From Escherichia coli (lineage in GTDB: Bacteria > Pseudomonadota > Gammaproteobacteria > Enterobacterales > Enterobacteriaceae), in assembly GCF_013315695.1 (NCBI RefSeq), contig NZ_CP054353.1: a DNA stretch of 64,000 nt; one strand, 5' to 3'. Below are positions 33,001-39,000 of this stretch, in pieces. Made by a program: the position numbers. Each line of letters starts with the position of its first letter. Position 1 is the first letter of the stretch.

Positions 33001-36000
33001 TCAGAAAGTACGGCAAAACATTCAGCAGGATCACTGGCAGCATAAGCATCAATGCTCGCCGCATTCTCACCAACTAATTCGATTTCTTCCTGAATGTTGT
33101 TCATTGCAGCATGAAGATCGTGTTCCCAGCCAGCAACCTCACGCAACGAAATAAAGGGAACTCCGCTGGCGCGATCGCCGTTACGGGTGTCCAGCTTATG
33201 AGCGACTTCATGAATAATCAGGTTAAAACCAGAAGCATCAAAAGAATCTTGTATATCCAACCAGTTCAAAACGATAGGCCCTTGCTGCCAGCTCTGACCT
33301 GACTGAACAATACGTTGGTTATGCACCAGACCGATATCGTCTTCCCATTCATCATCGACCACAAATGGCGCAGGATAAATTAAGATTTCATGAAAACCAT
33401 CCAGCCATTCCAGTCCTAACTCCAGAACGGGCAGGCAAAATAGAAGTGCTATCCGGCAGCTTCTTAATGAATTCAGCTCAAAGCCCTGTAAAGGAACAAG
33501 CCGTTTTTGCTGTAAAAAACGTTCGGCAAGAGCGACCAATTTGCTTTGTTCCTGTTCTGTCAGACACGTTAAAAGGGGGATCGATAGTGCTTCCTGCCAG
33601 GGAAGGGCAGTTTGATGTGCTGATTCTTGTACTTTCCAGGGCCACTTAATCATCGTTTTGCTCGCAAACTCGTCACTTGAACAAAATTGCACGGACAGGG
33701 ACTGTTAAAATGCCAAATTTCCTGGCATCATGGCAACCATCTGAACGGAGAGATGCCGGAGCGGCTGAACGGACCGGTCTCGAAAACCGGAGTGGGGGCA
33801 ACTCCACCGGGGGTTCAAATCCCCCTCTCTCCGCCAAAATTCAATCACTTACACATCATTAAGTCAGTGACAAAAATCACACTTGGAATTACTTGGAATA
33901 TTTTCTTGGAATATTTTCAGGTAACGGGACATCAAGTGTTGGTGAAACTTTAACCTTCCTGTCATAGATTAGCACTTGCCCTTCGGTTTTGTGACCAGAG
34001 AAAAGTTGCTTATCCCGGCTGCTTCCTTCATAGTCTGAAATTCCTTTCGCCTTCAGATCATGAAAGGTGAAGTCGGTTAAAATACCTGAAATTTTTCCAG
34101 CACGATTTCTTGCTTCTACCCACATTTCGTTAAAGCCTTTGTACATATATCGGTTGCCGTATTGATTGCTGATCACATAGGCAGATTTTGGTAACTGTTT
34201 TGCTTTTTCGATCGCTGCCTGTAATCGTGGACTCCATGCTTTTATCTGTTTTTTTCCGGTTTTCCCTTGCTGGATGAATATCCCGTCGTTTCCAATCTGT
34301 TCCCATTTCAGCGATAACACATCGGAAACCCTCGCTGCACACAGATAGGCAATTTCCATTGCGATAAAAACAGGAAGAGGTGCAACGCTTAATACTGCCT
34401 GGTATTCTTTGTCGGTTACATATCGTTCGCGGTTTTTGGCCTTGAATTTACTTACACCTGCACATGGGTTAGCCTTGACGTACCCTCGCTCATACCCCCA
34501 ACTGTAAACACGGGACATACTGCTTTTTTCATGGTTGGCTTGCGTTTTACTCTGCTCCCCTCTTTTGTCCATGTATCGACGGATGTGTTCTGGTTTTATG
34601 GAATCCGCTGGTACCTTACCGAATACGGCAAGCAACTTTTTTTGATGTTGCAGATAATCTTTTTGTGTTCTTGGACTAAGGTCACTGTAATAGGCGCTGG
34701 CGAGGAATTTTTCCCACAAGCGACCGAATGTCATTGCACGATCGCGATTATTTACAGTTTCCTCATACTTTTTCCATAAAGCAGCTAAACCATCCTTGAT
34801 GGCGGTTAGTGTGACAGATTCTCTGGATGTTGGTTTCCATACATAACTATATTTATTTGGGTATACATTTGGAGGTAATTTTTCGTGTTCAGGATTTTTC
34901 CTTCGTCTTCCCATCAGATCGCACCAAAATTCGGCTCTACCTCGCGTGGTGGTAAAGTTTTATTGCAGGTAAATAGATCCCGGCTGACAATCGGTTTGCC
35001 ACTACGATTGGTATAGAACGGAAGCCCGTTTTCCATTAACCATTTTCGCTGGTGGCTTGCATATTTGCAGCCCGTTAATATTAGCAATTCATCTTCGGTT
35101 AAAAATAAGCTGCTCATAGCTATATCTCATAACCGCCGCTAACTATATACGGTTAGCGGCAATTAGGGTTGAACATTAAAAATCAGCCTGACTCGGGATC
35201 AGTTTTTGCCAGATAGCTGAAACGTATTTTGCCTGGTAACGAGCGTCATCAAGTGCATTATGTCGCTCACCTTCGAATGGAATAGCCGTTCTGGCATCGA
35301 AGTCTATGGCTTTCCCCAGCTCAACGATTGTGCGTACATCGCGATCGTTGTAGTAACGCCACGGGCAGGGGATCCCCTGCCGTTCGTATGAACGGCGCAA
35401 AATCGTGTTGTCGAAGTTGGCTCCATTTCCCCAAACCTGAACAAAAAATTCACCGGAGTTTTCGTCGATAAATTCCCGCAATTGTAACAGTGCATCATCT
35501 AACGGGATTTCATCGGTCATAATGGCAGATTGCGCTTCGCGTGATTGCTTAAGCCACCATTTAATGGTGTCCCGATCAATGACTCCGCCAGCAGTTTCCA
35601 GATCGATAGTCTTACTAAATTCCGGTCCCATATCTCCGGTTTGCGGATCGAAAAATATTGCACCTATTGAGATGATCGGGGCATCAGGATTTTTTCCCAT
35701 GGTTTCAAGGTCGATCATTAGATGGTCACACGTCCTGCTGGTGGATGTGATTTCGTGATGACCGTTCACCTTAATTGAGTGATCTGCCGTCTCGCCAGTT
35801 TTATTATCGCTGGCGTGATGCTGATTGCCGCCAGGGTTCTCCTTGTGTGGATGTTCAGCGCCTTCCATTTCCTCCGGATCATTTTCCTGAACTTCAACCT
35901 GATTCTCTTCATCGAATGTTTCCTGGTATGTTGCGTCGCCCATCACCGCGCCACAATCAGGGCAGTTGCCGCCACCGCTCTGACCGCAGGCGGTGCAGAC

Positions 36001-39000
36001 TTTTTCCGGTTCCTGTTGCGCTACTGGTTCGGATTGTTTCGTTTCTGGCTCGTTTTGTAACGCATTTGGGCTGTTTTGTTCCGCTTTTTGGTCGTTCCGT
36101 TCCGATTCATGCTGGTTCTGGTTCACAGAATCGCGAGTCTGGATCCCCTTGACCCATTTCGGATCATTAGGGTCGCTAATCCCCTCAACAAATTCACCAC
36201 GCGATACAGCAAGTAACTTATCGGCGTCAGGCTGGCTGATATTGGCTGCCTGCATAATTTTGTTTGCTTCGTCAGCGGTGACTTTTACTTGGTTAGCGGA
36301 ACTCACCTGCGACTGAGCATCCAGCGACTGCGCGTTCTGGCCATGTTCAGTTGTATCCGGTTCCATTGTTTCAGTTGTTGCCTGTTCACCTGCCATTGCG
36401 TCAGATGGTTGTGGTTTTTCTTCTTCTGTTTCACGCTCAGTAACCACCTCGCGGTTAATTTCTTCCAGGATATCTTTTTCCGGCGTATGCCGGGCAGCTG
36501 TGAGAGTTTCCTTGCTGGGGTTCTCGTGATCAGTTTCCGTCAAATAGGCGTTGATATACCCCTGAAGGCGTCCCGGGTAGTGATAAAATTCAGGGTGTGC
36601 GCTTCGGATAAGTGCAAAAATAGCGGCGCGGGAATAGTCCAGAATACCCGGGGTTGCACGAAGTGCTGCGGACCATTCTTTGAACGGACTTTCTTTGTTC
36701 AGGACTACTTCTTTTGCGCGACGATAAACGCTGCCCGGAATTTCATAAATATTAAAATCCATCGGAAGTGTGGCTGCTGCAATCTCCACATCCAGTGTGT
36801 CGAGGGTGTGTACTAAATTCGGATTGCGATCGGTTTTGTTCCCACCGCCAGCATTAGCACCGGAAGCCGTGCGGGTGATGCGTGAAACACGATTTCCTTT
36901 CATCCACTCTTTTGTCAGCAGACCCCGATCAGTGTAGTCAGCGTCCAGGTATGCTTCGAAAAAAGCAGTTATTAGTCCCAGGTCTGAATTACCAGGATTA
37001 GGGAAAACTTTGTCAGTGTCACGAACCAGTTTGTGGAGGTCGCGAATCTCCAGCGAGTCGAGCAGACTGGTTTTATGCGAAATAGCCAGGGCAGTAACAG
37101 CCGGTAGTTCTTCAGCCCGTGCAATGTGTAATGCCTGGAGTTCGTCGCGTGAAACGTGCGTTACTGGTTTTTCGCTGCCGTGTTGAGCAAGCCAACGAAT
37201 GGGCAGTTCCTGACCGGAGACAGGCAGAAGCATGCTCTCCTCAATCTCAGTCATGTCTTCGCCGTTGATGTTGGTATTGTCAGTGCTGGCTGGTTTGTCC
37301 TGAACAGAGGGGGAAGGGCCGATAAATGTCATTGTGATGCCATCTTTCCCGCCTTTTTCATAGCGGTTGCAGAATTCAGTATCAAACACGCCTTCTGGCG
37401 GAAGGTCGTCAACAACGGGCAAATTGACGCGGACGGGTTTTTTAAAGTCGTCTTCATCATAATCGTTGTCATCCATTGCGGTAATGCAGCGGGAGATTGC
37501 AACAGATAATTTTTTTGCTGTAGCCCAGTAAAAACCACCTTTAATTCCCAGGCGTTTTCTTACTTTGTCATTTTTTGCTTCGCAATATAGTGCAAATTCT
37601 TCTTTATCAGTGCTCATTATTGGTAAACCTCATCACAGATTTAAGGGTGAACAAATCTCTGCCATTGCTGACATATAAGAATGAAACTGGATATTTATTA
37701 CGGTGCTGTTTTAAAATCCTGCCGGGATTTCGTTATTATCCTGGTGAATAACTTTATCGACCGGATAACAGTTGCCTGGAATTTTCTGTTCGGTTGCTGC
37801 TGCCATACATTCCTGCATTGTTCTGTGAACACTGACTGCAATATCAACTGGCTCTCCGGAAACAAGAAAAACTGTCAGAACAAGCACAAATGCTGAATTC
37901 ATTGTGCACATCCTTTTGGCATCAGACGTAAACGAGCCAGCATTGAAACAATGCATATTTTATTTAATAGCTCCCGTTCTTGTTTTCTCTTGTTAATGGC
38001 ATCTTCAGTAAATACTGGGTTACTGATAGTGACACCAATTTCAAAACAACCTTCAGACGTATTAACGTTTGGTAATAACGTTTTCATTATCGCGTCCTCA
38101 ACAATGAATTTTGTGATGCAGTGCCTGGTGCCTCCAGGTGACGTTAACCAGTTAACAATTAACGCCGGATACAGAGAATCCACCCATAACACTGTTTTTG
38201 GTTTTAACTGTTCCGCGTGCGCTCAGCCGCATTCACCACATCACAAAATTCACTTTAAAAAGGGCGGCAGAGCAGTCACGGAGTAAAACTGATACCGCCA
38301 AACGTCACCAGAAAATTGATAACAGAGGGCGTTGCAGCGGGGTTGTCACTTAAGCGTATGGTCAACCTGACAACCCGGTGTCCTCAACGGGGAAGGAATA
38401 ACCCCGCCATACTTACCGCCGCGCCATTTCGCGGGTTGCCACAACCGGAAGCGCACGGTCGACGAAAATTTAACGACAGGCTATCTATGAACCAGCTACC
38501 TCGCCGTGCGCTTTCGCGTTATGGTCTGACTTTTCATGGAAATATCCTTTCAGTAAACTGTCAGTGCCGGATGCTCACCCGTGTCCGGCGCACGCACTCC
38601 ACCTCACCCGTGGAGAACTCCTTAATTACCAACCTTAGCTTCGTTGGTTAGCTATTAACGCGGGTATGTAATCATTCTGGCAATGCTTAATGCCGCTGCT
38701 TTTTCCAGCCTGGTGATATCCTGCTCCAGAGAGAACAGATTTTCAGCCTGCTTAGCCCTGGCTTCATTAGCCCATTTCAGATCCTGCGCTGCATTAATTT
38801 TCTGGCGCATCCACTCATAAAGTTCATCATCGGTATAGTCTGGCGCGATGATGACAGGTTCTCGTTTCTGCATGTCAGCTCCTTGTGGTTCGCATTGCCT
38901 GCTTTTAACCACGTCAGGCGAGGTGGTATCCTCTGAGGGGTCTGTTACTCGAGAGGAAATTGGTTATGAATACAATCAAGTTTTCTTGCCCAGAATGTGG

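Follow-up and report, generated by a model that had tools for sequence, protein, structure and literature searches.

The closest described relative of the gene considered here is recE of the Rac prophage of Escherichia coli K-12. Its product, exodeoxyribonuclease VIII, degrades double-stranded DNA in the 5'-3' direction by means of a C-terminal nuclease domain of the PD-(D/E)XK type (DUF3799, residues 615-850) and passes its product to the annealase RecT. The N-terminal domain, which makes up two thirds of RecE, has no known function (PMC11611040). A second described enzyme, DexA of phage T4, is a 3'-5' DNA exonuclease of the DEDDh type which prefers single-stranded DNA (PMC12153337). In a stretch of 64,000 nucleotides from an E. 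coli genome (contig NZ_CP054353.1 of assembly GCF_013315695.1; this whole stretch is called the window in the following) a prophage gene was found which combines elements of both. It encodes a protein of 813 amino acids with the N-terminal body, the linker and the CxxC...CxxC knuckle of RecE, but with a predicted DEDDh 3'-5' exonuclease domain instead of the 5'-3' nuclease, and with no recT downstream. By the curated sequence tests the protein falls outside RecE, with a model score below the cutoff, no PD-(D/E)XK domain and no RecT. The most fitting description is that of a DexA/Rv2179c exonuclease variant with the body of RecE or, seen from the other side, of a RecE variant with swapped polarity and no annealase.

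The open reading frame at 35176-37617 is intact, lies on the minus strand and starts with ATG, precisely as put forward in a preliminary description which had been made from the sequence alone. Two Pfam domains in its product score above threshold. The first, Exonuc_VIII (PF06630), covers residues 57-189 (E 1.7e-35, 123 bits versus a cutoff of 25), and BLASTP aligns residues 58-615 to residues 50-591 of K-12 RecE with 59% identity, exceeding 90% in places, and nothing beyond, which bears out the RecE-like non-catalytic body named in that description. At the DNA level the similarity to K-12 recE covers nucleotides 339-1837 of the gene only and ends at about residue 612 (megablast). The folded body of approximately 400 residues was modelled with confidence, yet no structural relative of it turned up. 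It is followed by an acidic linker (19% aspartate plus glutamate versus 7% lysine plus arginine) which is still alignable by BLASTP to residues 403-591 of RecE. The linker contains a pair of CxxC motifs conserved in K-12 RecE, and this knuckle may bind zinc; the corresponding Pfam zinc-ribbon match is weak (DZR, E 0.096). The NCBIfam equivalog model for RecE, NF007259, aligns residues 1-615 to model positions 1-602 of 877 and gives 945.3 bits, below the cutoff of 1269 bits. DUF3799 was not found by Pfam in the 813-residue protein, and the C-terminal domain of RecE used as a tblastn query had no match anywhere in the window. The RecE-type 5'-3' nuclease, said beforehand to be missing, is indeed missing. 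The E-values of these homology results lie far outside chance expectation, so that coincidental pattern matches do not account for them. The gene arose by modular exchange at the boundary of linker and catalytic domain, the DEDDh module standing in the exact place of the PD-(D/E)XK nuclease of RecE.

The second Pfam domain, PF16473 (Rv2179c-like 3'-5' exoribonuclease), spans residues 632-803 and positions 2-177 of the 177-position model (E 7e-68, 228.2 bits versus a cutoff of 27). Among solved proteins only the T4 DexA structures 8KEL and 8KEN were matched by sequence. Twenty-six sequences, comprising close standalone homologues, distant phage homologues and T4 DexA, were aligned with MAFFT, and the residues D636, E638, D736, H786 and D791 proved to be invariant. 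A model of the domain obtained with AlphaFold2 (AF2) from this alignment had a predicted local distance difference test score (pLDDT) of 87 and a predicted template modelling score (pTM) of 0.84. When it was compared with the PDB by Foldseek, the DexA chains 8kel and 8ken were the best matches (E 8e-13, TM score 0.73, probability 1.00), followed by RNase T, REXO2, the oligoribonuclease Orn, and Cap18, again with a probability of 1.00. Because the five residues are invariant and the confident model comes nearest to DexA, the domain is predicted to be a DEDDh exonuclease with a complete catalytic set, belonging to the DexA/Rv2179c branch; profile, residues and fold all agree with the exo I, II and III motifs from which a DEDDh 3'-5' C-terminus had originally been proposed. 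T4 DexA belongs to the same DEDDh subfamily, is the best match among solved proteins in both sequence and structure, and shares all catalytic residues. It differs in being about 25% identical, in being a standalone protein of 227 residues with extra loops, and in coming from a virulent phage with modified DNA. Rv2179c of Mycobacterium tuberculosis, the founder of the Pfam family which is matched over its whole model length, is in contrast a standalone bacterial exoribonuclease which is not phage-borne and has no RecE-like extension. Phage records with related domains number 1284, most of these domains being encoded by standalone genes for about 190 amino acids, and the enterobacterial standalone forms begin exactly at M634 of the 813-residue protein. 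An internal start at this methionine was considered and rejected, the sole Shine-Dalgarno-like AGGA being located about 15 nucleotides upstream and thus too distant.

The best-matching Pfam family takes its name from a 3'-5' exoribonuclease, and RNases, namely RNase T, Orn and REXO2, are among the structural neighbours. The protein might accordingly be an exoribonuclease like Rv2179c which processes or degrades transcripts, possibly host RNAs or the co-transcribed precursor of the small RNA DicF, whose gene belongs to the operon and lies 0.65 kb upstream. Maturation of DicF is credited to other enzymes, however, namely RNase III and RNase E. In addition, the nearest relative with a solved structure, DexA, is a DNase, the body also occurs in a DNA exonuclease, and standalone homologues in other phages lie beside genes of DNA polymerase and recombination, adjoining either DNA polymerase and Cas4 exonuclease or RdgC. 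An exoribonuclease acting on RNA is considered extremely improbable.

On the minus strand the genes of this part of the prophage have the order repressor, ydfC, DicF, dicB, ydfD, exonuclease, DUF4224 excisionase-like gene (xis) and integrase (int; Table 1). The exonuclease gene is the last long gene of the early-left operon, just ahead of xis and int, and recE is likewise found at the end closest to int in its lambdoid early-left operon. The operon is the dicB operon of Qin-type prophages, with DicF as confirmation, so that the assignment to the early-left operon of a Qin-like prophage was correct. YdfE of the K-12 Qin prophage belongs to the same protein family and is encoded in the same slot after dicB and ydfD; the Pfam families YdfE_N and YdfE_C match relatives of the body. 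We take K-12 ydfE to be an N-terminal remnant cut off by an insertion sequence, and the gene of the window to be the intact version with its nuclease domain. Nothing relevant was found in the literature on YdfE-type proteins or the relevant Pfam accessions.

The absence of a RecT partner was followed beyond the neighbouring genes. Besides the exonuclease gene, the early-left region from 35117 to 39474 contains only ydfD, dicB, DicF, ydfC and small open reading frames. An annealase would not fit into the 4.3 kb that separate xis from the repressor, the open reading frames there being otherwise identified by Pfam, and a RecT query had no tblastn match in the window. Positions 33218-64000 are 99.6% identical, except for approximately 680 bp of the immunity region, to a prophage of strain AVS0790 annotated by the Prokaryotic Genome Annotation Pipeline (PGAP); this annotation lists RusA and no RecT, Bet, Erf or other annealase. 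By tblastn and the AVS0790 annotation, an annealase overlooked elsewhere in the prophage is ruled out, and the claim that there is no RecT partner stands. In nine other loci there was likewise no adjacent annealase of the RecT, Redbeta, Erf or Sak type. The order dicB, ydfD, exonuclease, xis and int is kept in loci which differ in attachment site and in type of integrase, and in metagenomic and genomic relatives with bodies only 30-42% identical the gene is again located directly before excisionase and integrase. Because the same order recurs across loci and in divergent relatives, the missing RecT is a property of the type and not an accident of this locus. The arrangement expected of a two-component recombinase, an exonuclease plus an SSAP (single-strand annealing protein) encoded side by side or in the same element, is absent.

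The exonuclease might nevertheless work in recombination with an annealase or recombinase supplied in trans, such as host RecA/RecFOR, a co-resident Rac-like RecT, or an unrecognised small SSAP. The gene lies beside xis and int, in the slot where lambda and Rac have their recombination modules, exo-bet and recE-recT. Many E. coli genomes hold both module types, and fusions of this body were seen with a RecT fragment (P0244) and with a possible Rad52-like module. The predicted 3'-5' polarity, on the other hand, would remove the 3' tails which all known SSAPs and RecA use, and no SSAP was found in the prophage by tblastn with RecT or in the PGAP annotation. Muyrers et al. are also said to have found in 2000 that RecE binds RecT through its nuclease domain, the very part which is absent here. 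Recombination with a partner in trans is therefore regarded as very unlikely.

Table 1. Features of the exonuclease gene and of the surrounding prophage region (positions refer to the window)
Feature	Position	Strand	Evidence
Complete coding sequence of the 813-residue exonuclease, stop codon included	35176..37617	-	Open reading frame list; 100% identical to RefSeq WP_021563172.1 'exonuclease'
RecE-type N-terminal folded body, residues 1-400	36418..37617	-	Confident fold
Acidic, largely disordered linker, residues 401-632, common to RecE up to residue 615	35722..36417	-	pLDDT mostly <50
CxxC-x7-CxxC knuckle within the linker, residues 541-555; K-12 RecE equivalent CNACGQTGGDNCPDC	35953..35997	-	Sequence and alignment
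Module junction, about residues 613-615	35773..35781	-	Similarity to recE stops here at DNA and protein level
DexA/Rv2179c-family DEDDh 3'-5' exonuclease domain (predicted), residues 633-813	35179..35721	-	PF16473, AF2, Foldseek
Exo I motif DLET, residues 636-639 (D636, E638)	35701..35712	-	D and E invariant in 26-sequence alignment
Exo II motif WGNGANFD, residues 729-736 (D736)	35410..35433	-	D invariant in 26-sequence alignment
Exo III motif HNALDDARY, residues 786-794 (H786, D791), 'h' subtype	35236..35262	-	H and D invariant
DUF4224 excisionase-like (xis) gene, directly downstream	34914..35117	-	Pfam E 1.9e-15; same slot in all sampled loci
Prophage tyrosine integrase	33889..34914	-	Pfam Phage_integrase; adjoins tRNA-Ser
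tRNA-Ser(cga), serU attachment site	33747-33836		ARAGORN
Upstream operon genes ydfD (DUF1482), dicB, DicF	37711..38313	-	Pfam DUF1482 3e-25, DicB 9.6e-40; PGAP names in identical locus
DicF antisense small RNA (RF00039) between ydfC and dicB	38262-38313	-	Rfam 76.7 bits versus gathering score 48
CI/DicA-type helix-turn-helix repressor heading the early-left region	39474..39881	-	Pfam HTH_3 1.2e-14
cro-like and ydaT genes, divergent	from 39959		Pfam P22_Cro, YdaT

Some further features were noted in the window. The sole segment which does not align to the AVS0790 prophage, at 39377-40039, comprises the 3' part of the repressor and the cro side and looks like a swap of the immunity module. The prophage integrase is an intact open reading frame of 341 amino acids here and is annotated as a frameshifted pseudogene in the otherwise near-identical prophages of AVS0790 (L001:8704-9754) and Esc11 (L003:7374-8424). 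A small divergent open reading frame with two CxxC pairs (38960-39166, plus strand), of the putatively zinc-binding ECs_2282 family, lies antisense within the early-left region. Two prophage tRNA genes at 49368-49618 (plus strand), tRNA-Met(CAT) and tRNA-Arg(TCT) according to ARAGORN, the first of which is named tRNA-Ile by PGAP in a related prophage, are located 3' of the antiterminator gene, a position they also have in Stx-type lambdoid phages. Positions 1-32000 are taken up by the yersiniabactin high-pathogenicity island (GC content 0.55-0.62, ybtS at 29758-31062), the insertion site of which is tRNA-Asn (32680-32755). Between island and prophage lies mtfA alone, the order being tRNA-Asn, mtfA, tRNA-Ser, prophage. 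The integrase of this island (31259-32518, minus strand) is 98% identical over all 420 amino acids to the annotated one; its ATG start is replaced, so that MSLTS... reads ISLTD..., and with no alternative in-frame start before ISLTD it may not be translated.

The distribution of the gene was determined in 5426 complete E. coli genomes. The full gene was present near-complete (at least 80% coverage) in 1244 of them. The DEDDh module was found in 4053 genomes (75%), with a total of 8106 copies and up to seven per genome, versus 1729 genomes (32%) for the K-12-type RecE nuclease module, where recT overlapped in every match listed. The DEDDh form is the commoner of the two in E. coli. The only correction to be made to the preliminary description regards how unusual the architecture is: besides being the more frequent form it is routinely annotated, under the RefSeq names 'exonuclease', '3'-5' exonuclease' and '3'-5' exoribonuclease domain-containing protein' and in full-length families of PHROGs. 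As the family is abundant and already annotated, it is not a new sequence, and its architecture is catalogued in RefSeq, Pfam and PHROGs. No functional study of the protein or of its fused homologues was found in the literature. What is new is the explicit recognition of the swap, the greater frequency in E. coli of the DEDDh form than of classical RecE, and the occurrence of the body family in four modular versions, described below.

The ratio of nonsynonymous to synonymous substitution rates (dN/dS) in comparison with diverged copies lay between 0.08 and 0.31 in the N-terminal body, between 0.28 and 0.32 in the linker and between 0.09 and 0.24 in the DEDDh domain, and dS varied several-fold between modules of one pair, for example 0.84 versus 0.06. 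All parts are thus kept by selection, with separate histories. A pseudogene or decaying remnant is ruled out by the intact open reading frames and these ratios. In other strains the same locus contains a variant which shares residues from about 440 to 813 and has an unrelated N-terminus.

A DEDDh module present in three quarters of the genomes in up to seven copies fits a benefit to the host, and a prophage-encoded nuclease for superinfection exclusion or defence would provide one, either by degrading T-even DNA with 5-hydroxymethylcytosine (5hmC) or by trimming the 3' ends of RNA-phage genomes. Both activities have precedents. EcD ('HREX', GenBank HAK9828821.1) is an E. coli protein of the DexA family, reported to cleave 5hmC DNA only and to protect against T4 (PMC12153337). 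The TONDO proteins are DEDDh exonucleases joined to unrelated auxiliary domains, often in prophages as here, which block MS2 and Qbeta (PMC13344964). EcD, however, is a standalone protein (MIDTET...TIPETY by its cloning primers) and is not contained in the 120 closest relatives of the present domain. The proposed 5hmC-recognition residues W152 and D169 of DexA correspond to Y755 and A770 here in the MAFFT alignment, an assignment which depends on the alignment as there are indels in this region. Of the tetramer residues of DexA, D90 is absent from EcD and retained here as D708, and S87 corresponds to P705. That the C-terminal domain is the published EcD/HREX was ruled out, as not one of the 240 homologues retrieved has the MIDTET and TIPETY ends, the primer-derived ends by which EcD is known here; when viral contigs were scanned for EcD with 20-mers, a chance match in a portal-gene contig was all that came up. 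TONDO proteins belong to the RNase_T/ISG20 branch (PF00929, cd06127), have fewer than 500 residues, are represented by EcTon on IncF plasmids and act on the 3' untranslated regions of RNA phages (PMC13344964). The present domain reaches 21.6 bits with PF00929, the profile of this branch, against a cutoff of 24; TONDO was compared by Pfam profile and description. In PADLOC-DB v2 the full-length protein had no match, on which basis a known defence system was rejected, and the isolated domain had a generic CRISPR-associated DEDDh match (8.5e-7). The gene is, moreover, the distal gene of a repressor-controlled early operon, and its own promoter signal did not rise above chance, consensus promoter-like sites in the scanned region being no more frequent than in shuffled sequence. 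A defence nuclease is considered unlikely.

The role had been left open in the preliminary description, and in part it still is. Favoured here, as moderately probable, is an active DNA exonuclease trimming 3' ends, which would be made on prophage induction and brought to its substrate by a RecE-type platform, and which would not be a RecET-type recombinase. The invariant catalytic residues, the model nearest to DexA, the purifying selection, the conserved operon position and the DNA-metabolism neighbourhood of standalone homologues speak for it. Co-transcription with dicB, DicF and ydfD from the repressor-controlled early-left promoter would cause the protein to be made on prophage induction or phage infection. 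It would then, as T4 DexA does, digest DNA 3' ends or single-stranded DNA in the 3'-to-5' direction in a Mg2+-dependent manner, and 3' tails would be trimmed or removed rather than generated. An enzyme of this kind could not feed an annealase as RecE feeds RecT, which fits the consistent lack of recT. The body would serve as a nuclease-independent platform, taking its C-terminal effector to the same partner or substrate as in RecE.

Several points weigh against this reading. The exonuclease activity and the genetic role are predicted by homology, both for the protein itself and for every fused homologue. PF16473 is named after an exoribonuclease, Rv2179c, and a DEDDh sequence cannot distinguish a DNA from an RNA substrate. 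Expression from the early-left promoter alone is inferred from the gene order and the absence of a detectable promoter. The body has no structural or functional relative, and it is described as a putative platform on the basis of its combinatorial partners. The very high prevalence and the presence of up to 7-9 copies per genome would also fit a benefit to the host such as defence.

The same time of expression would suit a nuclease for anti-defence or host takeover in the early lytic phase, which might destroy immunity nucleic acids with a free 3' end, for example the multicopy single-stranded DNA (msDNA) of retrons, or scavenge host DNA for nucleotides. Many anti-defence genes have such an early-operon slot. 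Rac RecE, with which the body is shared, sets off Retron-Sen2 and Retron-Eco9 by degrading retron msDNA in vivo (10.1101/2020.06.22.160242), and the scavenging role is documented for DexA (PMC12153337). The argument is one of analogy, however, and the in vitro effect of RecE was obtained with a truncated RecE corresponding to the nuclease domain (10.1101/2020.06.22.160242), the part which is not shared. Anti-defence or host takeover is seen as quite unlikely.

The platform role assigned to the body in the favoured reading leads to the question of what else the body is joined to. Eighty representatives of the body with at least 450 amino acids were compared. Twenty-two contain a PD-(D/E)XK module, 15 a DEDDh module, seven a possible Rad52-like module and eight a helical module; the others are mostly fragments ending inside the body or linker. 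The PD-(D/E)XK or DEDDh domain is always located at the extreme C-terminus. Near-identical bodies occur with either nuclease, as in the pair P0243 and P0241; P0243 is 86% identical over residues 1-260 and yet has a PD-(D/E)XK domain. On sequence grounds the body is the constant element and the C-terminal effector the variable one, with at least four alternative modules.

The possible Rad52-like group (P0250, P0299, P0318, P0320, P0322, P0352 and P0386) consists of complete genes for 735-814 amino acids, located at 6001-8445 or 6001-8361 in loci L021-L024, and in each case an overlapping gene of the Sipho_Gp157 family comes next. Its module of about 200 residues has the signature DGEAxKKSLTDAxKKALSxLGFsAD..GLYD. 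The Pfam family Rad52_Rad22 matched all seven below threshold at the signature region (best E 0.0016). A profile search of the PDB with the module was empty, and hhalign against Sak of ul36 aligned the signature helix without reaching significance; PHROGs labels the module 'exonuclease'. It may be a body-annealase fusion, and is regarded as a lead. The helical group (P0305, P0314, P0339, P0342, P0350, P0355, P0357 and P0362; complete genes, loci L026-L028) contains a module corresponding to phrog_26058 (...YRQQLTLAALQGMCANP...) with no recognisable nuclease, again just before xis and int; P0339 occurs on at least 24 contigs. In P0244 (703 amino acids) a RecE-like body, reaching to about residue 528 of RecE, is fused in frame to residues 83-269 of RecT, which looks like a recE-recT deletion fusion.

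A wider proposal may be drawn from this modularity, although it is tentative and on the whole doubtful. The N-terminal domain of RecE would be a targeting platform of orphan fold which, in enterobacterial lambdoid prophages, delivers interchangeable DNA-end effectors via a long acidic tether. Four such effectors would be in use: a 5'-3' nuclease acting with RecT, a DEDDh 3'-5' nuclease on its own, a helical module and, possibly, a Rad52-like annealase that has a Gp157-like partner. In its DEDDh version the platform would form a system of end processing or anti-defence which needs no annealase and has the same host or phage target as RecE.

RecE and RecT underlie recombineering, and the present family bears on the larger part of RecE. 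The body is under purifying selection even with a nuclease of predicted opposite polarity and with the annealase dropped, so its function should be separable from RecT and from 5'-3' resection. With its naturally occurring chimeras the family offers a means of identifying the binding partner of the body. With multi-copy carriage also in Shiga toxin-producing E. coli strains, these proteins are among the most abundant uncharacterised prophage enzymes of E. coli, and they may play a part in prophage induction, in recombination between prophages, in defence or in anti-defence.

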